Shown piece after piece: positions 10,935 through 49,640 of a DNA stretch of 49,640 nt; the first letter of the stretch is position 1, and each line of letters begins with the position of its first letter. A program made the translations under genes and the position numbers. The DNA is taken from NCBI GenBank assembly GCA_965656585.1, contig CBFHLD010000001.1, positions 1 to 49,640 of the forward strand, in the 5' to 3' direction. The notes under the pieces are model-generated. The model made no database searches. It saw only the letters and a program-made list of their open reading frames with translations, and was not told where the DNA came from. This DNA comes from Candidatus Izemoplasmataceae bacterium (lineage in GTDB: Bacteria > Bacillota_I > Bacilli_A > Izemoplasmatales > Izemoplasmataceae).

Positions 10935-10987
10935 CGAAAGCATCGTTTTTCGCACCACTATGGTATAATTATGTGAGAAAAAAAGAG

Positions 10988-11042: not shown

Positions 11043-11054
11043 AGGGGTGAAATT

Positions 11055-25432: not shown

Positions 25433-25439
25433 TACGTTG

Positions 25440-25639: not shown

Positions 25640-25649
25640 GGAGGAAAAC

Positions 25650-29786: not shown

Positions 29787-30743
29787 TTATTTGGCTTCAG
29801 GGGCTTTTTTGGCAGTTTTTGCGGGGGTTTTTGCGGCTTCACTGGCACTGGTTAAACTCTCAGCAATGCTAGAAGTCAAACCTACAATGCCTTGCATATC
29901 GGATGGAATAATCAGTTTCGTCGCGTTACCTTCAGAGACTTTTTCTAACGCTTTATACGCTTCTAAGCGTAAGAAGGCTTCGTCGGCCCCGGCCTTTTTA
30001 ATAAACTCAATCCCTTGCGCGGTGGCTTGTTGGACCTTGAGAATGGCTTCGGCTTGACCTTGGGCTTCCAAGATTCGTGTTTGACGTTCCCCGTCCGCTT
30101 CTAAGATGCGGGATTCTTTTTCCCCTTCCGCATTCAAGATGGCGGCGCGTTTGTTCCCTTCGGCAATCAAGATGGATTGACGTTTTTCCCGTTCGGCGCG
30201 CATTTGTTTTTCCATGGCTTCACGGATGTCTTTGGGAGGGATGATGTTTTTAACTTCGACGCGGTTGATTTTGATTCCCCAAGGGTCGGTGGCTTCATCT
30301 AAAATGCCGCGCATTTTTTCATTGATGATATCACGGGATGTTAAGGACTGATCGAGCTCTAAGTCCCCGATGATATTCCGTAAGGTCGTCGATGTTAGAT
30401 TCTCAATCGCTTTGATTGGCTCGTTAACCCCGTAGGTATAAAGCTTGGGGTCCGTAATTTGAAAGAATACGACGGTGTCAATTTGCATGGTGACGTTATC
30501 TTTCGTGATGACGGGTTGTGGATCAAAATCCACCACTTGTTCTTTGATCGATACTTTTTGTTTCACGCGGTCAATAAAGGGAATCAAGAAATGAAGTCCC
30601 ACGTCCCACGTTTGATAGTAGCCCCCTAAGCGTTCCACAATAAACCGGTTGGCTTGGGTGACGATGGAAAAACGGGTGGCCAGATACGCAAGCACCACCA
30701 ATACAATAATGATAAGTAAAATGAGTCCAAATCCAAATTCCAT
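29787..30743 (-). CDS. SPFH/band-7 (stomatin/QmcA-like) membrane-scaffold protein
   Basis: N-terminal TM helix, then a stomatin-like core (IVERLGGYYQTWDVGLHFLIPFIDRV...TKDNVTMQIDTVVFFQITDP...RVEVKNIIPPKDIREAMEKQMRAEREKR) and a coiled-coil Ala/Glu-rich tail. Confidence 0.92.
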   Translation of the reverse strand: MEFGFGLILLIIIVLVVLAYLATRFSIVTQANRFIVERLGGYYQTWDVGLHFLIPFIDRVKQKVSIKEQVVDFDPQPVITKDNVTMQIDTVVFFQITDPKLYTYGVNEPIKAIENLTSTTLRNIIGDLELDQSLTSRDIINEKMRGILDEATDPWGIKINRVEVKNIIPPKDIREAMEKQMRAEREKRQSILIAEGNKRAAILNAEGEKESRILEADGERQTRILEAQGQAEAILKVQQATAQGIEFIKKAGADEAFLRLEAYKALEKVSEGNATKLIIPSDMQGIVGLTSSIAESLTSASEAAKTPAKTAKKAPEAK

Positions 30744-30758
30744 AATTTTTAATGCCTC

Positions 30759-31367
30759 CTAAATGGGATATAGTGTGTCTTCAACCACAACTTTGGTTTT
30801 CGTAAGATAATCGCGGATCGTTTTTCTTTGGTTGGTTAAACTGATTAAGATGAAATCAATAAAGATACCAAACCCTAAGGTGAATACCCAATAAATGGAT
30901 TTCCAGAAAACTTCTCTGAGTAGTAAAGTCCACCAATTAACAGGTCCAGCCAGGCGCAATTTCGCAAACCGCCTTCCGACTGTTTTCCCGCGTGTGAATC
31001 CTTGATACAGATAATTAAATAAGGTGAGACTTAGAATAAAATACAGGGCACTGGTATATAAAAACGTCGCATACGCTTCGGTTTCTTCGGCGTAATTTTC
31101 GTTGTAGACTTCGTCTATTTCATTGAGCCTTTCGGTGTATTCAGCTTCAGTGATTAACCCCGCATCAAAATTTTCTTGGACGAGAACCACTTCATCAAAC
31201 CGGGTATCTTGGGCGTCAATGAAAGACGCATAAAGCGTATCAAAATTATCAATGCTATCTTCGATGATCGGCCGGGCGACGAACCGGAATAAAAAGACCA
31301 CAAGCGCTAAGATAAAAATGGTGTCGATCAGAAAGCTGAAGATGCGTTTGAAAATACTGGCGTTCAT
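30759..31367 (-). CDS. RDD-family membrane protein
   Basis: N-terminal ..FKRIFSFLIDTIFILALV.. and ..GKTVGRRFAKLRL.. match the RDD-domain pattern. An acidic ~75-aa insert lies between TM1 and TM2. The gene overlaps the NfeD gene by 4 nt. Confidence 0.7.
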   Translation of the reverse strand: MNASIFKRIFSFLIDTIFILALVVFLFRFVARPIIEDSIDNFDTLYASFIDAQDTRFDEVVLVQENFDAGLITEAEYTERLNEIDEVYNENYAEETEAYATFLYTSALYFILSLTLFNYLYQGFTRGKTVGRRFAKLRLAGPVNWWTLLLREVFWKSIYWVFTLGFGIFIDFILISLTNQRKTIRDYLTKTKVVVEDTLYPI

Positions 31368-31825
31368 ACTTTTTTCACAATCAGTTTGACGCCTTCAATC
31401 GCCAAGATTTCAACGGAGTCATTTTCTAAAATATCAGAATCATCTTGACTGATGGCGGTCCATATTTGACTATTCACTTTGACTTCTCCGCGCCCTCCTT
31501 TAAGGATGGATTTCACACAGACAGCCGTTTTTCCAATCAGCCGGTCTGAGTTGGTTGAGACCACATTGGTTCGGAAGTAGTTTTGGGCGAGCGGTCTGAC
31601 ACTGAGTAATAAGCCCACTGATATCACGATAAATACAATTAGTTGAACGACAATGTTAACGCCCAATATCGCGAGGATGAACGCTATGAGTGCGGCGAGT
31701 GAGAACCAAATACTCGTTAAATCAAGGGTCAGTGCTTCTAAGATGGCCCCAAATATGATGATGCCAAACCATAAAACGATGAACCAAAATTCAATACTTA
31801 AATTAAGCTCCAATATATTATCCAT
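31364..31825 (-). CDS. NfeD-family protein (short YbbJ/YuaF type, TM region + C-terminal OB-fold)
   Basis: Three to four TM helices, then IGKTAVCVKSILKGGRGEVKVNSQIWTAISQDDSDILENDSVEILAIEGVKLIVKK, the typical NfeD C-terminal beta-barrel signature. It is in an operon with an SPFH gene. Confidence 0.85.
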   Translation of the reverse strand: MDNILELNLSIEFWFIVLWFGIIIFGAILEALTLDLTSIWFSLAALIAFILAILGVNIVVQLIVFIVISVGLLLSVRPLAQNYFRTNVVSTNSDRLIGKTAVCVKSILKGGRGEVKVNSQIWTAISQDDSDILENDSVEILAIEGVKLIVKKV

Positions 31826-32210
31826 TATGACGCTCCTCCTCTAAGGACTGCAAGTCAACCACTAATACTTTTTCTTGATCGTCCCACTCAGCGTTAAATT
31901 TATACATCGTATGGGTATCAAAATCGAGGCCAATTTGTGCGGCTAAGTCAGTCACGAAGCTTTTGTTAGAGATTCTCGCATAACTACTTCTAAGGCTGAT
32001 CTTATAAAGCAGCTCTTCGCCAATATCCCCGCGCTGAAACTCTTCTTTACTCAAAGGTTTAATCCCGAGTTTCTTTCCGTCACTATCGACTCCCAGCATG
32101 ACACTATACGCATGAGTAAAATGGACACTGGCAGGCTTGTTGAGGGTGATATTGGTTTCATATAGGCTGACAAATTTGGTGCCTTGTTCTTTCGATTTCC
32201 ATTTGAACAT
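31818..32210 (-). CDS. Hypothetical soluble protein, about 130 aa
   Basis: The ORF overlaps the NfeD start by 8 nt. The likely start is ATG 32210 (RBS gaggtg 6 nt upstream); the track begins at GTG 32219. No family motif recognised. Confidence 0.55.
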   Translation of the reverse strand: MFKWKSKEQGTKFVSLYETNITLNKPASVHFTHAYSVMLGVDSDGKKLGIKPLSKEEFQRGDIGEELLYKISLRSSYARISNKSFVTDLAAQIGLDFDTHTMYKFNAEWDDQEKVLVVDLQSLEEERHNG

Positions 32211-32228
32211 TGTTTTCACCTCAGCCTA

Positions 32229-37155: not shown

Positions 37156-37197
37156 ATCCACTTAACAAAACTTAATGATTTAAAGGAGCGCATTAGG

Positions 37198-37225
37198 TTG
37201 AGAATGAAGTGGATTTATTTATAAT
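37198..37225 (+). promoter_or_regulatory. Candidate promoter of the ABC/lipoprotein operon
   Basis: TTGAGA (37198-37203), a 16-nt spacer, then TATAAT (37220-37225). It would give a leader of about 90 nt. A second -10-like TATACT lies at 37275-37280 without a good -35. Confidence 0.4.
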
Positions 37226-37318: not shown

Positions 37319-38380
37319 TTGGAAATTAGATTAGAAAATTTAACCAAAGTTTTCACCAATAAAAAAACCACAAACACCCTTGCGGTTGACCAGCTCGATG
37401 TTACCATTCCATCCGGTAAACTCATCGGTTTATTGGGTCCATCAGGCTGTGGTAAATCCACAACACTTTACATGATATCTGGCCTATTGAAACCGACCGA
37501 TGGCAGTATCTATTTTGGAGACGATGATGTCACAACCGTACCCCCTGAAGAACGCGGGATCGGGTTAGTCTTTCAAAACTATGCACTCTATCCGCACATG
37601 ACGGTTTTACAAAATATTATGTTCCCATTAGAAAACTTAAAAGTGCCTAAAGAAGAAGCGATGGAGCGGGCTCAAAAAATCGCTGACTTAGTGGGTATTG
37701 GGGAATTGATGAGCCGTAAGCCTGCGCAACTTTCTGGGGGCCAACAACAAAGGGTCGCCATTGCCCGGGCACTTGTTAAAGAACCCCGCGTCTTATTATT
37801 GGATGAACCTTTATCCAATCTCGATGCTAGATTACGTTTACAAACCCGTGAAGAAATTCGCCGGATTCAAAGAGAAACAGGAATCACGACGATTTTTGTC
37901 ACCCACGATCAAGAAGAGGCAATGTCGATCTCCGATGAAATCATATTGATGGATTTTGGGGTCAAACAACAAATGGGAGCTCCCCAAAATGTCTATGACG
38001 AACCGGCCAATTTATTTGCGGCGAAGTTTTTAGGGACCCCCCCGATTAACTTGTTTGACGGAAAGATTTCTGCGAAGAAAATCAAACTTGGTAAAAGTGT
38101 TTTAGGAGAAACCAAAGAATCGCCTAAAGACATCGTCATTGGGATTCGTCCGGAAGGCTTTATCGTTCAAAAAGAAGGACCCATTCAAGCAGAGGTCGAA
38201 TTTGTCGAAACCATCGGCCGTGATACGACACTCATCATGATTGATCCAACCGACGAAACGAAACGCTTTAGAGCCATTGTGGATTCCGATCATAAAATTG
38301 AGGCGGGTCAAACAATCGCCTTAAATGTAAAACCCCATAAAATGTTTATCTTTAATCAAGAAACAGGAGAACGTCTTTAA
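37319..38380 (+). CDS. ABC transporter ATP-binding protein, MalK/UgpC/MsmK type (CUT1 family)
   Basis: TTG start with RBS aggag 10 nt upstream. Walker A GPSGCGKST, Q-loop, signature LSGGQQQRVAIARAL, Walker B LLLDEPLSNLD, H-loop, and a C-terminal regulatory (TOBE-like) domain. Confidence 0.93.
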   Translation: MEIRLENLTKVFTNKKTTNTLAVDQLDVTIPSGKLIGLLGPSGCGKSTTLYMISGLLKPTDGSIYFGDDDVTTVPPEERGIGLVFQNYALYPHMTVLQNIMFPLENLKVPKEEAMERAQKIADLVGIGELMSRKPAQLSGGQQQRVAIARALVKEPRVLLLDEPLSNLDARLRLQTREEIRRIQRETGITTIFVTHDQEEAMSISDEIILMDFGVKQQMGAPQNVYDEPANLFAAKFLGTPPINLFDGKISAKKIKLGKSVLGETKESPKDIVIGIRPEGFIVQKEGPIQAEVEFVETIGRDTTLIMIDPTDETKRFRAIVDSDHKIEAGQTIALNVKPHKMFIFNQETGERL

Positions 38381-39306
38381 TGTTAGAAGATAAGAGTAAT
38401 GTTAAAGCGTGGTTTTATTTAGCACCGGCCTTATTTTTGCTCACCATTTTTATTTTCTATCCCATTTTTAACGCACTATTTTTAGTGTTTTTAAGAGACT
38501 ACAATTATTTACAAGGGACCTGGGAAGGGTTCACCTTGTTCGAAAATTTCTTTTACGTATTTAGAAATCAAAACTTTACGCAAGCTCTCACCAACACCAT
38601 GATTATTACGTTTGTGTCTGTCCCCATTTCGGTGATCATCGCCTTGCTCATCTCGGTTTGGTTGAATTCTGTGCTTAAGCTTCGTGGCTTTTTCCAAACA
38701 ATTTTCTTCTTACCGTATGTGACCAATGCCATTGCCATCGGGATGGCCTTTGCCTTTTTGTTCAACCAAAACTACGGTCTGATTAACACCATGTTAGGGT
38801 GGGTCGGATTAAACCCGGTTAACTGGGTCGGTTTGGGTGCCACATGGGGCAATGCCATGTTTAGCTTATTGGTTTATGTGGTCTGGGCATCACTCGCTTT
38901 TAAAATCATGGTGTTTTTAAGTGGACTCCAAAACATCGACAAACAATATTACGATGCGGCGCGTGTGGATTCAACGAAGCGCTACCGCATCTTTAGACGG
39001 ATTACGATTCCCTTGTTATCCCCGATGATTTTTTACATTACGATTACTTCCTTTATCGGAGCTTTCAAAGCGTATACCCAAGTGATTGGGATGTTCGGGG
39101 TAAGACTTGGGCCACCAGGGAATGATAAATCACTCATTACCATAGTGGCGCTCGTCTATGACGCACTGGACCGGTCCGGGGTTCCTGGGGCTTTATCAGA
39201 GGCTGCAGCTACCGCAATCGTTTTATTCTTGATTACTTTAGTATTTACACTCATTAACATGCAAGTGAGTAAAAATCGTGTCCACTATTCAGGAGGAGGT
39301 AAATAA
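38380..39306 (+). CDS. ABC sugar-type permease (MalF/UgpA-like)
   Basis: Six TM segments and an EAA-like loop (DKQYYDAARVDSTKRYRIFRRITIPLL). TAATG coupling occurs at both ends. Confidence 0.9.
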   Translation: MLEDKSNVKAWFYLAPALFLLTIFIFYPIFNALFLVFLRDYNYLQGTWEGFTLFENFFYVFRNQNFTQALTNTMIITFVSVPISVIIALLISVWLNSVLKLRGFFQTIFFLPYVTNAIAIGMAFAFLFNQNYGLINTMLGWVGLNPVNWVGLGATWGNAMFSLLVYVVWASLAFKIMVFLSGLQNIDKQYYDAARVDSTKRYRIFRRITIPLLSPMIFYITITSFIGAFKAYTQVIGMFGVRLGPPGNDKSLITIVALVYDALDRSGVPGALSEAAATAIVLFLITLVFTLINMQVSKNRVHYSGGGK

Positions 39307-40202
39307 TGGTTTTAGATACCGTCACTTACGGCGATGAAAAACAAAACCGCCGCAAAGCCAGAATCCGGTTCTCCTTAGTGCTCACGATGCTTATCCTATT
39401 TGGGATTTTCGTCATTATTCCGTTTTATTGGATGATTTTAACCGCCTTTAAAACCGAAGCCCAAGTTTTAACCGCGCCACCCATTTTATGGTTAAACCCC
39501 GTTAATTGGCAGTTTTCGAACTTTGCTACGGCTATGGATACGGCCCCGTTCTTAAGGTATATGGCCAATACCGTTTTAGTCTCTTCCATCTCAACGGTCG
39601 GGACGGTCATTACCACAGTATTTGCTGCCTTCGCGTTTGCAAGGCTCAATTTTAATGGCCGTGATTTCCTCTTTATGATTTTAATCTCAACGATGATGAT
39701 TCCTGGTGAAATTTTTGTCATCACTAACTTCTTAACGGTGGTTGAACTCGGGTGGATTCAAAACCAAACCTACATGAATGCCATACTCGCGATGACACTT
39801 CCGTTTATGACCAGCATCTTTTATATCTTCTTTTTAAGACAATCCTTCAGACAAATACCAGATGAACTCTACTACGCGGCGAAAGTCGATGGGACGACCG
39901 ATCTCAAATACCTCTTTAAGATTATGGTTCCCATTGCGCTTCCCACCATCATTACCATCACGATCCTGAATGCGATGGGGACATGGAATGCCTACATATG
40001 GCCGCGCCTTGTCACCCAGCAACAAGAATTTAGATTGGTATCCAACGGATTGCGTGATGCCTTTAGTAATATTGCGGGACGCATACTTTATAACGAACAA
40101 ATGGCCGCCGCCTTACTCGTCACGTTCCCGCTCTTAGTGGTTTTCTTGTTACTTAAAAAATATATCATTCGTGGGGTTTCACGAAGTGGTATTAAAGGGT
40201 AA
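39306..40202 (+). CDS. ABC sugar-type permease (MalG/UgpE-like)
   Basis: Six TM segments and the EAA loop DELYYAAKVDGTTDLKYLFKIMVPIALP. Confidence 0.9.
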   Translation: MVLDTVTYGDEKQNRRKARIRFSLVLTMLILFGIFVIIPFYWMILTAFKTEAQVLTAPPILWLNPVNWQFSNFATAMDTAPFLRYMANTVLVSSISTVGTVITTVFAAFAFARLNFNGRDFLFMILISTMMIPGEIFVITNFLTVVELGWIQNQTYMNAILAMTLPFMTSIFYIFFLRQSFRQIPDELYYAAKVDGTTDLKYLFKIMVPIALPTIITITILNAMGTWNAYIWPRLVTQQQEFRLVSNGLRDAFSNIAGRILYNEQMAAALLVTFPLLVVFLLLKKYIIRGVSRSGIKG

Positions 40203-40235
40203 AACGAAATTAAAATAATTTGTGGAGGAAATTTC

Positions 40236-41624
40236 ATGAAAAAAGGATTACTGCTTTCTGTAACCTTATTATTAGTACTCACTTTGAGTGCCTGTTTAGG
40301 GGGCGGGGGCCGCGAAGAAACTACGGTCGATATTCCCGATGCACTCCCCAATGAACCGATTGAAATCGTCATTTGGCATGCCTTTGGCGAAGACAATCAA
40401 GCTTTACTGCAAGAGATGTTTGATTCATTCAATCAAGAATATCCCCAAGTCACCATCACCCAGTTGGGTCAAGGGGGGTATGATGGGCTGAGAGAATCAA
40501 CCATTCAATCGATCGTGGCAGGCACCACACCAACCATCGTCTTTGGTTACCCCGATCACTTCGTGGAGTATCTGAACGGGAATGCGTTAGTTCCCCTGGA
40601 TGAATACATCAATCACGACGTTCACGGTGTTGATCTCAATGATTTCGTCGATGGTTTCTTAGCAGAAAACCAACAGTATTTAGATGGCAATCAATATTCC
40701 ATGCCATTTGCTAAATCGACTGAAATGGTGGTTTACAACAAAGATTTCTTTGACGCTCAAGGCATTGAACTTTCCAGAACCACACCCCTCACTTGGGATG
40801 AACTGGAAGAACTAGCGGATGACATGGTCGGCAGTGGCGCCAACCAATGTGATTTCCTCTTTAACGCCGATAGCGCCTCCAACTTCTTCATCAACAGTTC
40901 ACGTCAATGGGACGCTGGGTATACGGACGGGGAAGGCAATATTTTAGTCGATAACGCCGATACTCGTGACATGCTCAATTACTTTGATGGGTTATTCGCC
41001 CAAGATGTTGTGAGTTTCCCGATTGAATGGGATGAAAATTATGGGTCTGAACCCTTTAAAGATGGACTCGTATGTATGTCTCAAGGCTCCACTGCTGGAA
41101 CGCGTTATAACATTCCAGATGAAGAAAGTCCATTTAATGAGATGGGAATCATCCCCGTCATTCAAAAAGATTTAGACAACGCATCAGTTATGCAACAAGG
41201 TCCGAACGTTGCGGTAATATCGGATGCGGACAATAACCAACGCTTAGCTGCATGGTTACTCTTGAAACATATGACCAACACAGAAAACACCGCTGATTTT
41301 GCCATGGCAACCGGATACGTTCCCGTGAGAAAATCCGGCTTTGAAACTGCGGAATATCAAGAATTCTTAAGCATTGTAGACAAATATGACTCTGAAGGCT
41401 TAGCGGGCTTAAGTCCGACTGAACGTCTTGATTTACCGTTTGCGATGGCCGCTACGGTTGCTTACGCCCAAGTGGATTGGTATGAATTTGATCCTGCCTT
41501 CGTCGGCCGTGTCACTTCATCAGGGGCACGTCAAGAATCTGGCCTTGCGTTTGAAGCGATTTATGCCGGAACTCGTACCGTTGAAGAAGCCATTGAACGG
41601 ATGTTGAATCAACTGGGGCAATAA
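40236..41624 (+). CDS. Family-1 extracellular solute-binding lipoprotein (CUT1 type); substrate unknown
   Basis: Signal peptide with lipobox LSAC. A Gly-rich tether is followed by a typical family-1 SBP start (IEIVIWHAFGEDNQALLQEMFDSFNQEYP). The protein is very acidic. Length 462 aa. Confidence 0.88.
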   Translation: MKKGLLLSVTLLLVLTLSACLGGGGREETTVDIPDALPNEPIEIVIWHAFGEDNQALLQEMFDSFNQEYPQVTITQLGQGGYDGLRESTIQSIVAGTTPTIVFGYPDHFVEYLNGNALVPLDEYINHDVHGVDLNDFVDGFLAENQQYLDGNQYSMPFAKSTEMVVYNKDFFDAQGIELSRTTPLTWDELEELADDMVGSGANQCDFLFNADSASNFFINSSRQWDAGYTDGEGNILVDNADTRDMLNYFDGLFAQDVVSFPIEWDENYGSEPFKDGLVCMSQGSTAGTRYNIPDEESPFNEMGIIPVIQKDLDNASVMQQGPNVAVISDADNNQRLAAWLLLKHMTNTENTADFAMATGYVPVRKSGFETAEYQEFLSIVDKYDSEGLAGLSPTERLDLPFAMAATVAYAQVDWYEFDPAFVGRVTSSGARQESGLAFEAIYAGTRTVEEAIERMLNQLGQ

Positions 41625-41643
41625 CCCATTAAGGATGATTTAG

Positions 41644-42510
41644 ATGAATAAAATCTTCACACTTCTCATCATAACGTTATTCAGTGGAATGCTTTTAGCG
41701 TGTGAAGAAACTGAACCAGAACCCACCGTTTTTGAGATTTCTACTGAATGGTCCGATGCGCTCGATTTACAAGCCGTTGAATATGAAGGTAGAGAATTCT
41801 TAAAAGATGGCATCGGGGAAGTCATGTTAGACCGATGTGTGGATGGGGACACCACGTATTTCACCTATGGAGACATCCGGCCATTCAGTGTCCGCTATTT
41901 AGGCATTGATACCCGGGAGTCGACCGCCCAAGTGCAGCCATGGGGGTTTGCCGCTTCGGATTATAATTGCGAACTCTTAACGGCCGCTGAAACCATTGTC
42001 TTAGAAATGGATGCTTCAGCGGGACGCACCGACAACTATGGCCGGTATCTTGCCTATGTATGGGCCGATGGAAAACTGGTCAATTTACAAATGGTTGAGC
42101 AAGCCTTTGCGCCGGCCGTTGGAACGGGCGGGCTCAAATATGGCGATGAACTCTTTGCGGCTCAAACGCATGCGAAACTCACAGGCCTTAAGATTTGGGG
42201 AGAAACGGACCCCAGCTTCATCGGAGATCCATTGGATGTCACCATGGAAGAATTACTGGAAAACCCCGAAAATTATCGCGACCGCTTTTTAAATGTCGAA
42301 GGGACCATCACGGCCCGTGATGGCGGCGACTTCTATTTTGGGAATGATTCAGGCAGCATTTTTGTCTTTACCCAAAGCCAAATCTCTTCGATTATTGCCG
42401 ATGAATTTACCGTGGGAAGTAACCTGATTCTCAATGACGTTTACTTAACGGACCGTAGCGGTGAATGGCAACTCACTAACTTCAATATCCGGGAAGTTAC
42501 ATTCCCTTAA
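41644..42510 (+). CDS. Lipoprotein with a staphylococcal-nuclease (SNase/thermonuclease) domain plus a C-terminal OB-like barrel
   Basis: Lipobox LLAC. VDGDT, VRYLGIDTRES, RTDNYGRYLAYVWADGKLVNLQMVEQAFA and LKIWGE parallel S. aureus nuclease A (IDGDT, [45 protein letters not shown]). The C-terminal segment is FLNVEGTITARDGGDFYFGNDSGSIFVF. Confidence 0.88.
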   Translation: MNKIFTLLIITLFSGMLLACEETEPEPTVFEISTEWSDALDLQAVEYEGREFLKDGIGEVMLDRCVDGDTTYFTYGDIRPFSVRYLGIDTRESTAQVQPWGFAASDYNCELLTAAETIVLEMDASAGRTDNYGRYLAYVWADGKLVNLQMVEQAFAPAVGTGGLKYGDELFAAQTHAKLTGLKIWGETDPSFIGDPLDVTMEELLENPENYRDRFLNVEGTITARDGGDFYFGNDSGSIFVFTQSQISSIIADEFTVGSNLILNDVYLTDRSGEWQLTNFNIREVTFP

Positions 42511-42536
42511 AAAAACGAATACATTAAAGTGGAGGA

Positions 42537-45176
42537 ATGGATTTGAAAAAATTATTATTGGCTTTTGCATTAGTGGCCGGACTCTTTACGCTTGCTGCTT
42601 GTGGCGGTGAGACTGAAGAACCGGTGAATCAAGATTTAGAATTGGTGGAAGATGCACGGGATTCGTTATTGCTTTCCGGGCTTGATTCAGTCACCAGCAA
42701 TTTGAATTTACCAAGCTCCGGACGGAACAGTACGACGATCACTTGGTCATCGTCTGATCCTTCCGTCATTGCGAATGACGGAACGGTGACACGCCCCGCA
42801 GAAGGCGAAGATAACGTGACCGTGACACTGACGGCAACCGTATCACTCAATGATGAAAGTGTGACACGTTCATTTGAGGCGTTTGTCTTAGCGTTTGAGC
42901 CCAGTAACTCATTTACAAACTTTACTGAGCTTTTTGAAGCATCTAATATCAATGATTTAATTACCGCTGAAGGCGTTGTATCAAGCGTCTTTGACGGTGG
43001 GTTCTTCATTTATGATGGTGCTGAGCACCTTGGGGTTTACATTGGTTCAGGCGGAACGGGCGGGGGTCTTGTCGACCTTGGCGATGAAGTCCGCGTCACA
43101 GGACTATATGCGCGTTACTACACACTCTATCAACTTGGGGATGTAGAAAACGTCGAAGTCGTGTCTTCAGGAAATTCTGTGGACATTGAAGCGACCCCAA
43201 TTACCATCGAAGCATGGAACGCACTCACGTTAGACGACCCACTGATTCATGGGGACTTTTATGAAGTCACCGGGACACTGGTTCAACAAGGCGAATTTAA
43301 CAACTTATTCTTAACGTCCAGTGAATCAGATGATGAAATCTTAGTCTATTACTACTCCGATGCGGATTCATTAACTGCGTTAGAAGAGTTTGTGGGCCGC
43401 ACCATTACTTTAGAGCTCGTTTATTATACGAATCACGCATCTAACGGCATCATGGCCTCTTATTATGGCGATGGGTCTGATGTGGTGGTGGCAGAACTCA
43501 CCGATGCGCAAAAACTTGAACTCGACGTTGAAGTCTTAGAAGGCATGTCCTTTGTAACATACGGGGATGCAGTTGAACTTCCTGCCACGGGCTCTAACGG
43601 AACGACCTTCTCAAACTGGGCTTCAGGCGACGTTGACCTCTTAGGCAATGATGGATCTTATGTTGCATTGCCTGCAACCCCAACCGATGTCACATTTACC
43701 GCAACCGCGACGTTGGGCGATGAAACTAGCGAGGTAGAAATTACCGTCCAATCTCTGGCTGAAATCAGCATTGAGGATGCTTTAGAAGTTGACCCAGGCG
43801 GTTATGTTTGGTTCTCGGGTAAAGTCGTCGATATTATTGATGGAAACAGTGGATTCTTCTTATATGACGAAACTGGTGTGATTTACGTCCGTGATACTGA
43901 CTTCTACAGTGAAAACTCTGAGGCTGTAGTTGTGGGAGATTCTTGGACCTTTGTCGGTGCCAGAACCGATTATCGCGGACTGCCTCAAGTGGCCTCCATT
44001 GATTTCTTTGAAGCCAGCGAGGAAACCTTTGCCGATGAACCTGCTCCAACCTATGCGACGGTTCAAGATATCGTTGAAGGAAACGTCGTTCCGGGCCAAA
44101 AATATTTAGTCTATGGAACCGCAACAACGGTCGAAGAACAATACACCAACTATGAGCTTCAAGATGGTGAATTTGCGATTCAACTGCACTTCCAAACAAA
44201 CAATTCAGCCATTGCTGAATTTAATGGCCAAGAAGTCATTTTAGAAGTCCGTCCATTCCAATGGGATAATGATCCAAGCTATGTGGCCTACTTCGGAACC
44301 GCCGAAGATGTCGATGCCGACATCAGTGATGATGAAAAAGCTGAAGTTGCTGCGAAAGCGGTTCGCTTACCCTTTGACCTTGATGGCAATGGCGTAGCCG
44401 ATACGGTGTATGACGATGTTACATTACCAACCACCGGCAAATTTGACCTTGCTTTATCGTGGAGTTCCAGTGCGTCGGGAAGCTTAGCAAATGATGGAAC
44501 CGTCACGTTAGGTGCGGAAGCGGTTGATGTCGTCTTAACCTTAACCGTAGGAACCGTGACCCGTGAATTCACCGTCGAAGTTGGACCTGAACCCATGGAT
44601 GTCACCAGTGCTCTTGCCGCTGAAGATGGCGATACCATCTTAGTGGAGGGCGTCGTGGTCAGTATTGATCCGCATACTAATGGATTCTTCATCCAAGATG
44701 CCGATGGAACCGGGATTTATGTCGGCGACTTCGGGGATGATGAATTGAAATCACAAGTTTCTGTAGGCGATAAAGTCTGGGTCTTAGGGACCCGTGATAC
44801 TTACACACGTTTTGGCAATAATCAAGCCCAAGTATGGCAAGCTGAGTATATTGCTCAAGCCTCTGAAGGGAACGACGTCTTTGTGACGAAAGATATGACC
44901 GGCGATCAAATCATTGCCGATTTCCCTAATGCCAACTCTAGACGTTTTGAAGCGACTTTAACTGTTGATGAGTATGATGGGTTCTCCCATGTATTCTTCT
45001 CCACAACGGATGAAACCCTTGAAATGCGCCTTACCTTTGACATTCGTAATGTTGAAGGATGGGATGAAGATACCTATCCTGTAGGTACTGAAATTACCAT
45101 TGCATTTACAACACAACGCATTCATTTCGATAATTACCGCGTGGTAGATGTTGTGATTGTCCAAGGAGCCGAATAA
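42537..45176 (+). CDS. Large acidic lipoprotein made of three tandem [Ig-like repeat + two OB-like beta-barrels] modules; no catalytic motif seen
   Basis: Lipobox LAAC. The Ig-like repeats are at aa 55-118, 345-405 and 627-682 (LPxxGxNxxxIxWSSxxxxxxxNDGxVT....DVxxTLTAT pattern). The OB-like segments carry (E/S)G.VV....(x)GFF(I/L).D..G.(I/V)Y(V/I) at aa 145-170, 427-452 and 703-730. TTG 42543 (GGAGG 7 nt upstream) is a more likely start than ATG 42537 (1-nt spacing). Confidence 0.8.
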   Translation: MDLKKLLLAFALVAGLFTLAACGGETEEPVNQDLELVEDARDSLLLSGLDSVTSNLNLPSSGRNSTTITWSSSDPSVIANDGTVTRPAEGEDNVTVTLTATVSLNDESVTRSFEAFVLAFEPSNSFTNFTELFEASNINDLITAEGVVSSVFDGGFFIYDGAEHLGVYIGSGGTGGGLVDLGDEVRVTGLYARYYTLYQLGDVENVEVVSSGNSVDIEATPITIEAWNALTLDDPLIHGDFYEVTGTLVQQGEFNNLFLTSSESDDEILVYYYSDADSLTALEEFVGRTITLELVYYTNHASNGIMASYYGDGSDVVVAELTDAQKLELDVEVLEGMSFVTYGDAVELPATGSNGTTFSNWASGDVDLLGNDGSYVALPATPTDVTFTATATLGDETSEVEITVQSLAEISIEDALEVDPGGYVWFSGKVVDIIDGNSGFFLYDETGVIYVRDTDFYSENSEAVVVGDSWTFVGARTDYRGLPQVASIDFFEASEETFADEPAPTYATVQDIVEGNVVPGQKYLVYGTATTVEEQYTNYELQDGEFAIQLHFQTNNSAIAEFNGQEVILEVRPFQWDNDPSYVAYFGTAEDVDADISDDEKAEVAAKAVRLPFDLDGNGVADTVYDDVTLPTTGKFDLALSWSSSASGSLANDGTVTLGAEAVDVVLTLTVGTVTREFTVEVGPEPMDVTSALAAEDGDTILVEGVVVSIDPHTNGFFIQDADGTGIYVGDFGDDELKSQVSVGDKVWVLGTRDTYTRFGNNQAQVWQAEYIAQASEGNDVFVTKDMTGDQIIADFPNANSRRFEATLTVDEYDGFSHVFFSTTDETLEMRLTFDIRNVEGWDEDTYPVGTEITIAFTTQRIHFDNYRVVDVVIVQGAE

Positions 45177-45182
45177 CACATT

Positions 45183-45212
45183 AAAAAGGGCTACTTCGGT
45201 AGCCCTTTTTTT
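45183..45212 (+). terminator. Strong intrinsic terminator after the 879-aa lipoprotein gene
   Basis: aaaaagggctac-ttcg-gtagcccttttt with a T7 run. It is followed by an extended -10-like tgatacaat (45224-45232). Confidence 0.85.
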
Positions 45213-45257
45213 CTTGAAACCTATGATACAATGGGCTGTTAATGAAAGGATGTACTT

Positions 45258-46175
45258 ATGTTTAGATGGATCATATTGGTCCTGGTTTTAACCTTAACTG
45301 CGTGTCAAAATCAGCCCCAAGTTTTACCCGATTTAGCGGGACAAACCCAAGAAGAAATCGAAGTGACTTTAGAAGCCTTCGATTTAGAAGTGGATTTTAT
45401 TGAGCGAACCTTTGTAACACTTGATGAATCACGAGAATTTATTGAATATGGTCAGCTCAAAAGTGTCGGAGATCCGATTGAGCCAGGGGATTATATTACC
45501 GTGATAGTGAGTGCGTCTAAAATCGACGAGAGTATTTATTATGTGACATCTTTATTGCCGTATGATGGTCCTAGACTTTTAGAGTCGTTCTTTGATTTTC
45601 CGTATGTGATCGACCATCCGGATGGCCTCAAAGGTGGCGGAAAAGTCTTTGAAGTCACCTTGCAAGATAACAATGGGTGTGTGGACGGTGATACCGCACG
45701 GTTTGAAGTTCCAGAGGATTTTCAAGCGTATACCAACACGCCATTTATCAGTGTTCGCTTCTTGAATTTTGATACTGCAGAAACCTTTGATGGCGGTGAA
45801 GAAGTGTTTGGTAAACCGGCTTCCGTATTTACGTGCGATGCGTTACAAGAGACTTCCGCTATTTATCTTCAAACCGACCCTGGAGATTTTCTTTTTGACC
45901 GCTACGGTCGGACCCTCGCGTGGGTGTGGATTGAAGTCGACGGAAATATCGAACTCCTTAATTATCACGTTGTCCGGGCGGGCCTCGGCGAAGTGATGTA
46001 TTTATACGGAGCGGGTGAAACCGACACGACCGTCGTGGATGGGTTAACCTACACTGAATGGATGTACGAAGCTGAACGCTTGGCTGAAAACGAATCCCTT
46101 GGGATTCATGGCGACTTACTGGATTATTACTGGGATTACGAGAACGATGCGCCCAATCCGTACACGTGGCCTTAG
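45258..46175 (+). CDS. Lipoprotein with an N-terminal PASTA-like module and an SNase/thermonuclease domain
   Basis: Lipobox LTAC. LPDLAGQTQEEIEVTLEAFDLEV....GDPIEPGDYITVIVS is PASTA-like. The SNase motifs are VDGDT, VRFLNFDTAET, FDRYGRTLAWVW and LGIHGD. Confidence 0.82.
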   Translation: MFRWIILVLVLTLTACQNQPQVLPDLAGQTQEEIEVTLEAFDLEVDFIERTFVTLDESREFIEYGQLKSVGDPIEPGDYITVIVSASKIDESIYYVTSLLPYDGPRLLESFFDFPYVIDHPDGLKGGGKVFEVTLQDNNGCVDGDTARFEVPEDFQAYTNTPFISVRFLNFDTAETFDGGEEVFGKPASVFTCDALQETSAIYLQTDPGDFLFDRYGRTLAWVWIEVDGNIELLNYHVVRAGLGEVMYLYGAGETDTTVVDGLTYTEWMYEAERLAENESLGIHGDLLDYYWDYENDAPNPYTWP

Positions 46176-46183
46176 GAGTATGT

Positions 46184-47110
46184 ATGATTAAAACGATTAA
46201 AAACTGGATTGAATCTGCCGAAACCATTGTTATTCACCGGCATCATGAACCCGATTATGATGCCTTAGGATCACAGTGGGGACTTAAGTATTTAATTGAA
46301 GATAATTATCCTGGAAAAAAAGTATACGTTTTGGGTTTAAATAATCATCTCAATGCTTTACCGCCCATGGATGAAGTGGCAGACACCATTTTTGGGGACG
46401 CCTTAGGGATTGTGGTGGACGTATCACAAACGCACCGCGTGGACGATGCGCGTGTTTTAAAAACACCTAAAAAAATTGTCATCGATCACCATCAAAATCC
46501 ATCTGATTTTGCGGATCTTTTTTATCATCAACCTCAGTCGATCGCCGCCGCTGAAGTCATTACACTTTTAGCCTTAGAACTTGGTTGGAAAATTACACAC
46601 CGTAGCGCCCATGCTTTGATGCTTGGCATCATTTCTGACAGTGGCCGTTTCTTGTATAAAGGTGTCACAGACAAAACATTTGAAGCTGCCAACATCTTAA
46701 TGAAAACAGGACTGGATTTAAATGCGATGTATGAATCCATGTATACAGATTCATTGAGTTATAAACGCTTGAGAGGGTACGCCTTAAGACAATTTCAAGT
46801 TCTAAAAAGTGGCGTTGCCATTTTAAGAAATGGCAAAGAAATTAAAGAGCGTTACGGGGTCAGCGAGTTCACGGTATCCAGAGGACTCGTGAATGTGATG
46901 GGCCAACTTGAAGGGGTAGAAATGTGGGTTAATTTCACCGAAACCGACTCCGGAGAGGTTCTTGTCGAACTGAGAAGCCGGGACGTACCAGTGAATGATG
47001 TCGCCCTCAAATATGGCGGGGGTGGTCATTTACTCGCTGCCGGATGTATATTAAAAAATTGGAACGATAGCCACCAACTGATTCACGATTTAGAAAGGAA
47101 ACTCGCATGA
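46184..47110 (+). CDS. DHH/DHHA1-family phosphoesterase (NrnA-like oligonucleotidase / pAp phosphatase), paralog 1
   Basis: DHH motifs I-IV are HRHHEPDYDALGS, VVDVS, VIDHHQN and GIISDSGRF. The DHHA1 motif is GGGGHLLAAG. I chose ATG 46184 (RBS aggag 5 nt upstream) over the track's GTG 46166. Confidence 0.88.
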   Translation: MIKTIKNWIESAETIVIHRHHEPDYDALGSQWGLKYLIEDNYPGKKVYVLGLNNHLNALPPMDEVADTIFGDALGIVVDVSQTHRVDDARVLKTPKKIVIDHHQNPSDFADLFYHQPQSIAAAEVITLLALELGWKITHRSAHALMLGIISDSGRFLYKGVTDKTFEAANILMKTGLDLNAMYESMYTDSLSYKRLRGYALRQFQVLKSGVAILRNGKEIKERYGVSEFTVSRGLVNVMGQLEGVEMWVNFTETDSGEVLVELRSRDVPVNDVALKYGGGGHLLAAGCILKNWNDSHQLIHDLERKLA

Positions 47111-48081
47111 GTGAACTTCAACCGAAATACAAAGAATTACTCGATATCATAAAGGCCCATGAAACCATAATTATCATTCCCCACGCCCGTCCCGATGGCG
47201 ATTGCCTCGGCAGTGCCTTGGGGTTAAAAGATATCATCACAACCAGTTATCCCGAGAAAAAAGTTTTTGCAATCGGCGATGAAACTGGCTACTTAAAATT
47301 TTTGGGTCAACTTGATGTCATTGAAGATGATGTGTTCAAGGAGGCTTTGGTGATTGCGGTCGATACCGCCAATCAAGAACGCTTGGCCGATCAACGATAC
47401 ACGCTCGGCAAAACCTTAGTTAAAATCGATCATCACATTAATATTGATTCGTATGGGGATTTAGAGATTGTCGACACCACTTCTCCAGCTGCCGCGCAGA
47501 TGATTATGGACTTTTATACCATCAATGAGTCCAAACTAAATATGACCGCCCACGGGGCTCAAGCATTATTTACTGGAATCTTAACGGACACGGGTCGGTT
47601 CAAATACGATGGGGTGAGTCAAAGGACTTTTCTTTCGGTTGCGAAGTTATATGAGAATGGCCTCGACCCAAAGCCGGTCTATGAGGCCTTAGAAGTCATG
47701 AGTGAATCATTGATTCGCTTTAGAGGATATGTGTTACTCAATTATCAAAAAACAGATGATGGTGTGGCCTACATTAAAATCACGAAAGATTTGTGTGATG
47801 AATTTAAAGTCACTACCGAAGAAGCATCCAGTTTAGTGAATGAACTCTCGCATTTTGAAGATGCTCCCATATGGGTCCTTTTCAATGAGTATGAAGAAGA
47901 AAAAGTTGTAAGGGCTAGAATTCGCAGTAAAGGACCAAACATCTCAGTCACCGCCAATGGGTTTAATGGCGGGGGCCATGCGAAAGCCAGTGGGGCTAAC
48001 TTAGGGACCTGGGAAGTTGCGGATGAATTGTTAAAAGCCTTGAATGAAGTTGCTAAAACTTATAAATCAGAACAAAAATAG
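47107..48081 (+). CDS. DHH/DHHA1-family phosphoesterase (NrnA-like), paralog 2
   Basis: DHH motifs are PHARPDGDCLGS, AVDTA, KIDHHIN and GILTDTGRF. The DHHA1 motif is NGGGHAKASG. ATGA overlaps paralog 1. Confidence 0.9.
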   Translation: MSELQPKYKELLDIIKAHETIIIIPHARPDGDCLGSALGLKDIITTSYPEKKVFAIGDETGYLKFLGQLDVIEDDVFKEALVIAVDTANQERLADQRYTLGKTLVKIDHHINIDSYGDLEIVDTTSPAAAQMIMDFYTINESKLNMTAHGAQALFTGILTDTGRFKYDGVSQRTFLSVAKLYENGLDPKPVYEALEVMSESLIRFRGYVLLNYQKTDDGVAYIKITKDLCDEFKVTTEEASSLVNELSHFEDAPIWVLFNEYEEEKVVRARIRSKGPNISVTANGFNGGGHAKASGANLGTWEVADELLKALNEVAKTYKSEQK

Positions 48082-48103
48082 AGCCTTATGCTCTATTTTT
48101 TTT
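48077..48103 (+). terminator. Intrinsic terminator after the second DHH gene
   Basis: aatagagc-cttat-gctctatt followed by T8. The stop codon lies within the stem. Confidence 0.8.
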
Positions 48104-48212: not shown

Positions 48213-48878
48213 ATGGCGCGCATATTAGTCGTTGAAGATGAACCCAGTATTCAAAAAATGGTGGCCTATGACATCAAAGAGTTGGGCCATGAAGTAGACG
48301 TAACTAGCAATGGGTCTGAGGGGTTGCAAAAAGCGATGAATACGAGTTATGACATCATCCTTTTGGACTTAATGTTACCGGGCATGAGTGGGTTGGAGAT
48401 TGCTCAAATCTTAAGAAAGAATAATCACAGTGCGCATATCATTATGCTCACTGCCATGGATGAAGAATACCAAAAAATTGAAGGCTTCGAACAAGGCGCC
48501 GATGACTACATCACAAAGCCTTTTTCACCCCGTGAACTCACGGCTCGGATCAAAGCCGTCTTAAGGCGACGGAATAATGAAAACAACGAAGAGATACTCA
48601 TGCATCAAAACATCAAGCTCAACACATTAAGTTACGAAGCTTTTATCGAAGACCATCCGTTGAATCTCACCCTCAAAGAATTTGAACTACTTCAATACTT
48701 GATTCGTAATAAAGGGGTCGTGGTTTCAAGAGATCAACTCCTCAGAAAACTTTGGGGTTACAGTTACGATGGAGATACCAGGGTCGTCGATGTGCATATC
48801 TTTAAACTGAGAGAGAAAATGGATCCTCACGCGGAGATGATTAAAACCGTCCGTGGGATTGGCTATAAATTGGTCTAA
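48213..48878 (+). CDS. OmpR/PhoB-family response regulator (receiver + winged-helix domain)
   Basis: The receiver has ILVVEDE, the phospho-acceptor context IILLDLMLPG, and LTA..., KPF. The winged-helix output domain has LTLKEFELLQYL...VSRDQLL...VVDVHIFKLREKM...IKTVRGIGYKL. Confidence 0.93.
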   Translation: MARILVVEDEPSIQKMVAYDIKELGHEVDVTSNGSEGLQKAMNTSYDIILLDLMLPGMSGLEIAQILRKNNHSAHIIMLTAMDEEYQKIEGFEQGADDYITKPFSPRELTARIKAVLRRRNNENNEEILMHQNIKLNTLSYEAFIEDHPLNLTLKEFELLQYLIRNKGVVVSRDQLLRKLWGYSYDGDTRVVDVHIFKLREKMDPHAEMIKTVRGIGYKLV

Positions 48879-48972: not shown

Positions 48973-49640
48973 TTGAAAAAATTAACATTAGTTGCAGTTA
49001 CCTTATTAGCAGTCTTAACGCTTGCCGCATGTGGCGGAGGCGATGCACCAATCAATGTGTACACACGCGACACTACTTCAGGAACCCGTGCTGGATTCTT
49101 TGGAGGCATTGGCTATGGAGATGCCGCAGAAGATGACAGCTTACTCGTTGAGGGATTTGTTACCGCGGATAACGATGCACAGTTTAGCGCGATGCAAACC
49201 GACCTTGATGGGATTGGTTATGTATCCTTATATACTTATGTATCAAACCCAACAGCTGTTAAAGGTTTAGCATTTAACGGCGTTGAACCCTCATTAGAAA
49301 CAGCGGCCGATGGGTCATATGAATTAACTCGTCCATTCAACTACATCTTAAGAACCGAATGGGCGAGCGATCGTGACCAAGAAATTGCTGAAGCTTTTGT
49401 CGCATTTATGCTTTCCATTGATGGAGGCGATATCATCGCAGATGAAGGTGCAGCACCCATGGCTACAGCAACCTACACGTGGGACAGTGTTTCTGGTGAT
49501 TATCCAGTATGTTCAACAGACAATAGTGATTTCACTTTAAGATTCCGTGGATCCGATTCCGTTCAAGGAATTGCTGAAGCATTAGCTGCAGCATTTAGCC
49601 CCGAATGTGGAAATGTTGTCACTGACAATAACCACACTGG
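48973..49640 (+). CDS. PstS-family (phosphate-binding-protein-like) lipoprotein with permuted motif order; partial, continues beyond the right edge
   Basis: Absent from the ORF track because it is open-ended. TTG start with GGAGG 6 nt upstream. LKKLTLVAVTLLAVLTLAAC carries the lipobox. INVYTRDTTSGTRAGFF...GIGYVSL...VKGLAFNGVEP...GSYELTRPF resembles the C-terminal half of Bacillus PstS. It is followed by LRFRGSDSVQGIAEALAAAF, which resembles the PstS N-terminal strand/helix. Confidence 0.8.
   Translation, partial: MKKLTLVAVTLLAVLTLAACGGGDAPINVYTRDTTSGTRAGFFGGIGYGDAAEDDSLLVEGFVTADNDAQFSAMQTDLDGIGYVSLYTYVSNPTAVKGLAFNGVEPSLETAADGSYELTRPFNYILRTEWASDRDQEIAEAFVAFMLSIDGGDIIADEGAAPMATATYTWDSVSGDYPVCSTDNSDFTLRFRGSDSVQGIAEALAAAFSPECGNVVTDNNHT

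Follow-up and report, generated by a model that had tools for sequence, protein, structure and literature searches.

The 49,640-nt stretch of Candidatus (Ca.) Izemoplasmataceae DNA considered here (contig CBFHLD010000001.1; the whole stretch is called the window) carries, at 37319-48081 of the plus strand, a gene locus that, to judge from its gene order and protein identities, is already known: it is an orthologue of the 'DNA-degradation locus' of Ca. Izemoplasmatales described by Wasmund et al. in 2021 (Nat Microbiol, Fig. 6; PMC8289736), a published and partly validated system, and its novelty is therefore low. That the locus serves the scavenging of nucleic acids is very probable, and it is scarcely less so that the Izemoplasmatales locus works as a surface machine that feeds on extracellular nucleic acids and is coupled to phosphate uptake. 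Two points are added here, namely the likeness of the binding protein to U3GBP, the protein of Thermus thermophilus that binds the dinucleotide uridylyl-3'-5'-phosphoguanosine (U3G), and the organization of a large lipoprotein of 879 amino acids (aa) as three repeats of an Ig domain and a tandem OB pair, with pairs that resemble HIN-200 domains. The genes of the locus are the following:

37319..38380, + strand: ATPase of an ATP-binding cassette (ABC) transporter, MalK/UgpC type, 353 aa (Pfam ABC_tran, 128.8 bits)
38380..39306, + strand: CUT1 permease 1, 308 aa (BPD_transp_1; best NCBIfam match UgpA, 91 versus a cut-off of 335)
39306..40202, + strand: CUT1 permease 2, 298 aa (BPD_transp_1; best NCBIfam match UgpE, 111 versus a cut-off of 297)
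40236..41624, + strand: substrate-binding lipoprotein of the UgpB/U3GBP branch of CUT1, 462 aa (SBP_bac_8, SBP_bac_1; lipobox LSAC)
41644..42510, + strand: SNase (staphylococcal nuclease-type) lipoprotein 1, 288 aa, SNase domain and C-terminal OB-type tail (SNase, 57.6 bits)
42537..45176, + strand: non-catalytic lipoprotein, 879 aa, three repeats of aBig_2 + OB + OB, proposed nucleic-acid tether (Pfam aBig_2, three times)
45258..46175, + strand: SNase lipoprotein 2, 305 aa, PASTA-like N-terminal domain and SNase domain (SNase, 31.6 bits)
46166..47110, + strand: DHH/DHHA1 enzyme 1 (DHH1), NrnA-like, predicted cytoplasmic, likely start at ATG 46184 (Pfam DHH and DHHA1 above cut-offs)
47107..48081, + strand: DHH/DHHA1 enzyme 2 (DHH2), NrnA-like, predicted cytoplasmic (Pfam DHH and DHHA1 above cut-offs)

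According to the proposed mechanism, the 879-aa lipoprotein would tether polymeric DNA or RNA at the membrane, and the two membrane-anchored SNases, whose active sites are intact, would cut the polymer; the lipoprotein of the UgpB branch would take up phosphate-bearing products, of which dinucleotides or short oligonucleotides are the likeliest, and would pass them to the CUT1 ABC importer. Inside the cell, the two NrnA-like enzymes, predicted to be transcribed with the second SNase, would yield mononucleotides and strip the terminal phosphates, and the adjoining PhoB-like regulator and Pst transporter would handle the phosphate released. This sequence of capture, cleavage, import and finishing had been put forward in a first-pass annotation made from the DNA letters alone, and it is supported here by the intact SNase residues, the Ig/OB array, the UgpB-branch CUT1 transporter, the NrnA-like DHH proteins and the conserved association of the genes, the finishing step keeping its conditional form. 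Profile searches of all ten proteins with Pfam and NCBIfam agreed with the gene products that the annotation had named.

Regarding the published relatives, the window DNA is 88-91% identical to two contigs of Izemoplasmataceae metagenome-assembled genomes (MAGs). The locus matches that of Ca. Izemoplasma acidinucleici scaffold_255 (L044) in identical order, the large protein there being exactly 1049 aa, and it matches gene for gene that of the cultured Xianfuyuplasma (X.) coldseepsis zrk13 (L080), including the flanking NfeD-MnmE-DnaX-YbaB-RecR; the identity to the orthologous proteins of these two loci is 33-72% at full coverage. In the supplementary table of Wasmund et al., scaffold_255 appears with a 'glycerol-3-phosphate' substrate-binding protein (SBP) and two cytoplasmic 'oligoribonuclease A, Bacillus type' genes, and the supplementary text proposes that the large protein keeps polymeric DNA near the cell; Ca. 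Izemoplasma was also labelled by 13C-DNA (PMC8289736). As for the cultured relatives, the culture supernatant of X. coldseepsis zrk13 breaks down DNA, and added DNA both promotes its growth and raises expression of the cluster (Zheng et al. 2021, ISME J, Fig. 4A; PMC8397711), and in Hujiaoplasma (H.) nucleasis zrk29 a locus in which NrnA is named was found by quantitative reverse-transcription PCR to be induced by nucleic acids (Zheng et al. 2023, mBio; PMC10470597).

The window locus has in common with the published Izemoplasmatales loci the orthologous genes, their order and the adjoining phosphate-uptake genes, as well as the hypotheses attached to them, i.e., DNA tethering, surface digestion, import and a link to phosphate. 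The novelty implied by the first-pass annotation thus did not hold: the same locus and hypotheses had already been published for Izemoplasmatales (PMC8289736), and DNA induction was reported in cultured relatives (PMC8397711, PMC10470597). The differences lie in the details: the large protein of the window has 879 aa instead of 1049-1146 and is without a lamin-tail domain (LTD), SNase1 is without aBig_2 and has a tail of a single OB-type module, against two in the published loci, the Na/Pi-PhoU gene between DHH2 and the regulator and the 95-aa open reading frame (ORF) after recR are missing, and the surface proteins are far more acidic.

In a wider comparison, a profile of the binding protein was scanned against one genome per GTDB species, which gave 79 loci (L001-L079), and the window proteins were compared with the ORFs of these loci by BLASTP within a flank of 10 kb; the counts that follow are restricted to loci with enough flanking DNA. 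The order recR-ATPase-permease-permease-SBP-SNase-large protein-SNase-DHH-DHH recurs throughout the Izemoplasmatales, in dozens of species, and the same block, without recR, is found in the Acholeplasmataceae. The ABC genes were present in 65/66 loci, an SNase in 58/62 and the large protein in 46/47; the DHH pair was present in 24-25 of 30 (DHH1 in 25/30), most of the misses being long loci that run off the 10-kb flank. Since the same order recurs in species-level genomes of two orders, the gene association is far beyond chance, and the neighbourhood check proposed in the first-pass annotation, whether an SNase, a multi-OB lipoprotein, a CUT1 ABC importer and tandem DHH genes stay together, turned out positive. 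Homologues of the 879-aa and binding proteins occur in Izemoplasmataceae, Acholeplasmatales, Haloplasma and related MAGs. Some relatives carry further enzymes in the locus: in L027 (17455-18705) a protein with an Ig domain and a metallo-beta-lactamase fold is encoded between the large protein and SNase2, and in L055 (20185-21264, minus strand) an Endonuclease I gene with a Big_3 domain has been added.

The mycoplasma precedents of an SNase gene beside an ABC transporter, cited in the first-pass annotation, are real: M. agalactiae has a polycistronic P80(SBP)-SNase-ABC operon (PMC3585158), and a homologue, MslA, is reported to bind single- and double-stranded DNA (PMC4045577). This 'nucleotide transporter operon' (M. 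agalactiae P80-MAG_5040-MAG_5050..5070, M. bovis MBOVPG45_0307-0311, M. gallisepticum MslA-MGA_0676, M. hyopneumoniae mhp379) resembles the window locus in that an SBP-like lipoprotein, an SNase lipoprotein and a sugar/Ugp-type ABC transporter are co-transcribed, and in that the breakdown products were proposed to feed the importer (PMC3585158, PMC4045577). It differs in its order, SBP-SNase-ATPase-permeases, and in having one nuclease, no multi-OB protein, no DHH genes reported in the operon and much larger lipoproteins.

The binding lipoprotein and the importer

The transporter falls into CUT1 (carbohydrate uptake transporter-1), with ABC_tran, two BPD_transp_1 and SBP_bac_1/8 matches all above their cut-offs. 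The C-terminal domains of the ATPase score just under the Pfam cut-offs (OB_MalK 25.8 versus 27, TOBE_2 20.1 versus 21); its best NCBIfam match is UgpC, with 361 bits versus a cut-off of 432, and it is 62-98% identical to its orthologues in L001-L079. By sequence, the UgpB group stands closest to the binding protein, whose best NCBIfam match is likewise UgpB, with 65 bits versus a cut-off of 411; overall, the four Ugp equivalog cut-offs (UgpC, UgpA, UgpE and UgpB) are all missed by the window proteins.

As for the structure of the binding protein, its AlphaFold2 (AF2) model had a pLDDT of 89, and the top 23 matches found by Foldseek in the PDB were those of the T. thermophilus dinucleotide-binding protein (E 5e-25, TMt 0.81), as the 7C0x entries are identified by their PDB titles. 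A profile of the family run against the PDB with hmmsearch also put the Thermus dinucleotide binder first, with 108.8 bits, versus 98.5 for M. tuberculosis UgpB and 89.8 for E. coli UgpB. The residues mutated in U3GBP (Y56, F79, N81, S127, Y224, T240, Y246 and Q274) align with Y82, Y105, D107, S161, Y269, S285, Y291 and Q321 of the window protein; of these eight pocket positions, five are identical and three are conservative replacements, and all are invariant or near-invariant among 72 family members. Three of them, Y269, Y291 and Q321, are common to the window protein and U3GBP and not to either UgpB.

UgpB, the M. tuberculosis glycerophosphocholine (GPC) binder and the Thermus U3G binder form a phosphate-ligand branch of CUT1 (PMC12718374, 2025); across this branch two Tyr and two Ser coordinate the phosphate, and a two-Trp glycerol clamp occurs in UgpB only (PMC12718374). 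The window protein has the phosphate tetrad, at Y82, S161, S285 and Y361, and the tetrad is invariant in the family (Y82 in 70/72); the positions of the UgpB clamp, Trp169/Trp172, are gaps or A/L/M in 72/72 family members. The window protein is therefore like E. coli and M. tuberculosis UgpB in its CUT1 branch and in the conserved phosphate holders, and unlike them in the missing clamp and in the three pocket residues named above. It is most like Thermus U3GBP (PDB 7C0F series; SBP subcluster D-I), its best PDB match by profile and by fold, with the pocket residues kept; identity to U3GBP is only ~20%, and the window protein has additional helices at the C-terminus and is a lipoprotein. U3GBP as the nearest solved relative, the conserved pocket and the absence of the UgpB Trp clamp favour import of di- or oligonucleotides over import of nucleosides.

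Regarding the mycoplasma lipoproteins, the NCBIfam model lipo_P68 (NF045826) matched the binding protein with 32.3 bits and an E-value of 3.7e-8, over the N-lobe only and versus a cut-off of 200, and it gave 24-52 bits with the binding proteins of relatives; judged from these profile scores, a remote homology to the lipo_P68 family, a possible counterpart of mycoplasma P80/P81/MslA, is likely. In Acholeplasmataceae (L058-L079) the SBPs reach 620-830 aa by insertion of N-terminal Ig-like repeats (e.g., L076 9506-11440), which give weak matches to LapB/tandem-95 repeats, and the second permease has ~470-530 aa; in size, the Acholeplasma SBP is similar to the P68 lipoprotein profile of NCBIfam, which has 669 positions. 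A second binding-protein paralogue, of 626 aa and 42% identity, is encoded in L046 (Ca. I. acidinucleici scaffold_71, 10001-11209), from the same MAG as L044; around it no ORF matches the window nuclease, large protein, DHH or permease, the sole such case among the 79 loci.

The surface lipoproteins and the DHH pair

The two SNase lipoproteins exceed the Pfam SNase cut-off, which is 21 bits, and both have all the residues equivalent to D21, R35, D40, T41, E43 and R87 of staphylococcal nuclease; thus, the Ca2+ ligands (D21, D40, T41) and the catalytic residues (R35, E43, R87) are complete, six out of six, in each enzyme. SNase-family enzymes release short products, i.e., mono-, di- and oligonucleotides with 5'-OH and 3'-phosphate ends. 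The OB-like tail that the first-pass annotation had seen on SNase1 has mixed support: it gave no significant Pfam match, and BLASTP against the large protein was non-significant, but it bears the motif LNVEGTITARDGGDFYFGND, common to the OB modules of the 879-aa protein, and the SNase1 orthologue of L044 has a Pfam DUF5689 match. In SNase2, the PASTA-like domain (window 45258-45560) scores 19 bits, under the cut-off of 23.2, and the Acholeplasma homologue reaches 35.5 bits; the latter (L076 16848-18371) also has an inserted lamin-tail domain. A PASTA domain on the nuclease of a wall-less bacterium is unexpected. Four lipoboxes, LSAC, LLAC, LAAC and LTAC, are visible in the translations of the locus.

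The orthologue of the 879-aa protein in L044 is the 'large protein' that Wasmund et al. described, which has 1049 aa. Its AF2 model (pLDDT 88) consists of three homologous units of ~280 aa, each with an aBig_2 domain followed by two OB folds; the units are pairwise 31-36% identical, with z values of 12-19 versus shuffles. In Foldseek searches the Ig domains matched the aBig_2 domain of the arabinanase AbnA (5ho0), and the OB pairs matched HIN-200 domains solved in complex with double-stranded DNA (5z7d E 6e-10; IFI16, AIM2, p202; prob 1.0, TMt 0.40-0.46). Based on the model, the OB pairs modestly resemble the double-stranded DNA-binding HIN-200 domains, as a likeness of fold arrangement only: each repeat has a tandem OB pair like those of AIM2, IFI16, p202 and p204, with no sequence similarity (9-14% identity) and with an acidic surface where that of HIN is basic.

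No catalytic or nuclease domain was found by Pfam (E <= 0.01) in the 879-aa protein or in eight homologues, one of them the 1049-aa protein; accordingly, the published 'endonuclease I domain' of the large protein was not reproduced in this set. The window protein also has no Pfam match to the LTD, a domain added in most of its longer homologues, which in this respect are like the ExeM/NucH proteins. The ExeM/NucH NCBIfam model matched one OB module with 25.6 bits, over profile positions 35-95 of 546. With B. subtilis YhcR and ExeM/NucH/EddB the locus has in common the combination of OB nucleic-acid-binding modules with a surface nuclease activity; the difference is that binding modules and catalytic domains are here split over separate lipoproteins, and that there is no EEP domain, no 5'-nucleotidase domain and no sortase anchor, the AF2 model of the 879-aa protein containing only Ig and OB domains.

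The four surface lipoproteins (40236-46175) have a net charge of -10 to -14 per 100 aa and a computed isoelectric point (pI) of ~4.05, whereas the cytoplasmic proteins of the window have a pI of 5-6.5. Across the related loci, the charges of the surface proteins shift together, from ~-2 per 100 aa (UBA5603, subsurface) to ~-22 (soda-lake MAGs), and the charge of the cytoplasmic ATPase stays at ~0. These values suggest that the window organism comes from a saline or soda habitat, the acidic surface being an adaptation to salinity.

As for the DHH pair, the DxD, D, DHH, D and GGGH motifs are visible in both proteins, and neither translation has a signal peptide. The best PDB match of both is B. 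subtilis NrnA, of the bifunctional oligoribonuclease/pAp phosphatase type (5j21, E 1.8e-52 for DHH1; E 9.6e-67 for DHH2), which they also resemble as stand-alone DHH + DHHA1 proteins with all motifs; they differ from it in that both score under the NrnA equivalog cut-off of NCBIfam (222.7 bits for DHH1 and 243.6 for DHH2, versus 350). SNase2, DHH1 and DHH2 form a terminator-bounded unit with a tight junction after SNase2 and no terminator between the genes, an arrangement kept in both orders. Being conserved, this predicted unit supports a link between cleavage at the surface and processing of short fragments in the cytoplasm. A tandem DHH arrangement is also known in M. bovis, whose pair Mbov_0328/0327 is composed of a nanoRNase and a DhhP-type c-di-NMP phosphodiesterase and serves the general supply of nucleoside monophosphates (NMPs) (PMC7373297).

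Phosphate genes and transcription signals

The locus is followed by two phosphate-related genes, and it contains or adjoins several transcription signals:

48213..48878, + strand: OmpR/PhoB-type response regulator (Response_reg, Trans_reg_C; PhoB TIGR02154, 223.9 versus a cut-off of 296.2)
48973..49640, + strand: PstS-like phosphate-binding lipoprotein, ending at the window edge (PBP_like_2)
45183..45212, + strand: intrinsic terminator between two transcription units (stem AAAAAGGGCTAC, loop TTCG, stem GTAGCCCTTTTTTT)
48074..48100, + strand: terminator-like hairpin after DHH2 (11-bp stem then T-run, detected on both strands)
37198..37225, + strand: promoter-like site TTGAGA-16-TATAAT upstream of the ABC genes (11/12 consensus matches, consensus match only)

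The regulator occupies the same position in L001, L014, L018, L037, L038 and L080, and in the close relative L014 a gene of the PstS family also follows at the same position, succeeded by PstC (205 bits versus a cut-off of 196). In many relatives, DHH2 and the regulator are separated by a Na/Pi-cotransporter-PhoU gene, which the window does not have. A PhoP-box-like direct repeat, TTAACAAAACTTAATG, lies at 37162, upstream of the ATPase gene, and Pho-box-like repeats precede three units of the window, those of the ATPase, regulator and PstS genes; such boxes were discarded as a regulatory signal, as they were not enriched over 50 related loci (25 observed versus 18.7 expected from shuffled sequence). 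The adjacency of a PhoB-type regulator and PstS, from which the first-pass annotation had drawn a phosphate link, stands, with Pst genes in a relative; regulation of the locus by phosphate is at most putative.

Another direct repeat, TTCATAnnnnnTTCACA, spaced by 11 bp as is typical for sites of the OmpR/PhoB type, is located 10-25 nt past the recR stop in at least nine Izemoplasma species (L020, L021, L025, L026, L027, L034, L041, L045 and L053); it is absent from the window, where the spacer between recR and the ATPase gene has 163 nt versus ~500 nt in relatives. In X. coldseepsis (L080 6651-6938) a hydrophobic ORF of 95 aa without a Pfam match lies between recR and the ATPase gene, and the window spacer has neither this ORF nor room for one.

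Regarding the gene layout, the ORF check found ten plus-strand ORFs at 37319-48081, packed as the first-pass annotation had described: neighbouring ORFs share 1 nt in TAATG at 38380 and again at 39306, and they overlap in ATGA at 47107. The intergenic gaps are of 33, 19 and 26 nt, in agreement with the annotation, and a gap of 81 nt contains the intrinsic terminator; the 8-nt gap that it also gave depends on the start of DHH1, which is ambiguous: ATG 46184 (MIKTIKNW) leaves 8 nt, and GTG 46166 instead overlaps SNase2 by 10 nt. The strong terminator at 45183-45212, held to split the locus into two units, was recovered as GGGCTAC-TTCG-GTAGCCC followed by T7, and an extended -10-like element, TGATACAAT, can be read downstream of it at 45224-45232.

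In the wider window, G+C is ~43%, and the vicinity of the replication origin is indicated by dnaA, dnaN, gyrB and gyrA at 9.5-18 kb; dnaX-ybaB-recR immediately precede the locus. Upstream of mnmE, at 29787-32219 of the minus strand, lies an operon with genes for SPFH/Band 7, RDD-family and NfeD proteins and with a 133-aa ORF, and the NfeD-133aa-mnmE context is also kept in X. coldseepsis (L080). A T-box leader (Rfam, 105.5 bits) at 25428-25617, upstream of a 462-aa ORF (25638-27026), is unrelated to the locus; Rfam detected no other RNA element in the window, and none in the recR-ATPase spacers of seven relatives.

Alternative readings and significance

Several points weigh against the proposed mechanism. 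The structural margin of the Thermus protein over the UgpBs is small (Foldseek E 5e-25 versus 2e-23), and M. tuberculosis 4mfi has a TMt of 0.83; moreover, the ligand-contact role of the eight pocket residues was taken from the titles of PDB mutant entries together with PMC12718374. The HIN-like match of the OB pairs is modest (TMt 0.40-0.46, rmsd ~7 Å), and OB folds often occur in tandem. The marked acidity of the surface proteins, with only 1-7 Lys + Arg per OB module, is odd for a DNA binder. B. subtilis NrnA prefers short RNA with a 5'-phosphate, and the products of SNases have 5'-OH and 3'-phosphate ends. The tandem DHH pair of M. bovis has a general housekeeping role (PMC7373297), and those who described the locus read its transporter as an importer of nucleosides or nucleobases (PMC8289736).

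The acidity was set aside as an argument against DNA binding, because the SNases and the SBP share it to the same degree and the charges of the surface proteins co-vary across loci, following the habitat; the 879-aa protein may bind nucleic acids via divalent cations or base stacking. The finishing step is worded conditionally, because the M. bovis pair is general in its function and the SNase ends may not suit a canonical NrnA. As for the importer, uptake of di- or oligonucleotides is rated, from the pocket alignment and the structural model, at about an even chance, a moderate figure because the margin over UgpB is small and the contact roles are known indirectly. A more elaborate proposal is advanced tentatively: the CUT1 transporter would be a dedicated importer of dinucleotides and short (3'-phosphorylated) oligonucleotides, finished inside by NrnA-type enzymes without prior dephosphorylation outside; it would have orthologues through the Izemoplasmatales, the Acholeplasmataceae and maybe the mycoplasma P80/MslA, and the multi-OB lipoprotein would act as a HIN-like receptor of polymeric DNA.

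In the published view, the ABC transporter imports nucleosides or nucleobases after full dephosphorylation outside the cell, and the DHH enzymes have no part in the imported material (Wasmund et al. 2021); it is based on the nucleases and nucleosidases near the best SBP matches, on membranes stated to be impermeable to nucleotides, and on the extracellular 5'-nucleotidases encoded elsewhere in Izemoplasmataceae genomes (PMC8289736). Here it appears improbable: no nucleotidase or phosphatase was found in the locus by Pfam or NCBIfam, the SBP belongs to the phosphate-ester-binding UgpB/GPC/U3G branch with an invariant Tyr/Ser tetrad, the protein that it matches best by fold and by profile is a dinucleotide binder, and the cytoplasmic nanoRNase-type genes are in one predicted unit with a surface nuclease. 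In addition, the known nucleoside ABC receptors are of the Bmp/PnrA type and not CUT1, which also counts against it. Still less credit is given to an ordinary Ugp-type importer of glycerol-3-phosphate or glycerophosphodiesters, tied to the nucleases only via a Pho-type phosphate-starvation regulon in which they merely free phosphate. Such an importer would agree with UgpC, UgpA, UgpE and UgpB as the best NCBIfam matches, with the closeness of the UgpB structures, with the PhoB-like regulator and Pst genes that adjoin the locus and with the Na/Pi-PhoU transporter found here in relatives; however, all the Ugp scores are far under the equivalog cut-offs (UgpB, 65 versus 411), the Trp169/Trp172 clamp is absent in the whole family of 72, three pocket residues are those of the dinucleotide binder and not of UgpB, and the linkage of SBP and nuclease persists in mycoplasmas, where a homologous lipoprotein is reported to bind DNA. 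Finally, a glycan-utilization locus, with a CUT1 oligosaccharide importer and glycan-binding lipoproteins built on Ig domains, was rejected as extremely improbable, since Pfam found no glycoside hydrolase or carbohydrate-binding module in the locus and the SBP belongs to the phosphate-binding branch, outside the oligosaccharide binders; aBig_2 is indeed common in glycoside hydrolases, such as AbnA (5ho0), and JGI labels relatives of the SBP as 'multiple sugar transport', but two intact SNases are present, and OB folds instead of lectin folds are seen in the large protein.

The remaining alternative bears on the finishing step alone and leaves the other parts of the mechanism untouched. In it, the DHH pair would be composed of a housekeeping nanoRNase and a DhhP/PdeM-type c-di-AMP/pApA phosphodiesterase, linked to the locus by synteny only. 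Mbov_0328/0327 of M. bovis are exactly such a pair and supply NMPs in general (PMC7373297), both window proteins are under the NrnA equivalog cut-off, and the neighbours recR, ybaB and dnaX are also syntenic housekeeping genes; against it, the pair is in one terminator-bounded unit with a surface nuclease, with a tight junction and in both orders, and the NrnA genes of H. nucleasis are listed inside the locus induced by nucleic acids (PMC10470597). On balance this alternative is unlikely, if to be taken seriously, and processing of imported fragments by the DHH pair, as in the proposed mechanism, is preferred.

In conclusion, extracellular DNA is a major pool of phosphorus, nitrogen and carbon in sediments, with Izemoplasmatales among the identified consumers, and the window provides one more intact copy of the signature locus of this order, which leaves the overall picture unchanged. 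What crosses the membrane is the remaining testable point: the literature assumes nucleosides or bases, and the pocket of the SBP together with the DHH enzymes argues for di- or short oligonucleotides, a ligand that could overturn the published view, in which import is confined to nucleosides and bases. If import of nucleotide fragments is true, the transporter would represent a class of ABC importer believed to be uncharacterized as a complete transporter, and one common to the pathogenic mycoplasmas, whose homologous operon is tied to survival in the host.

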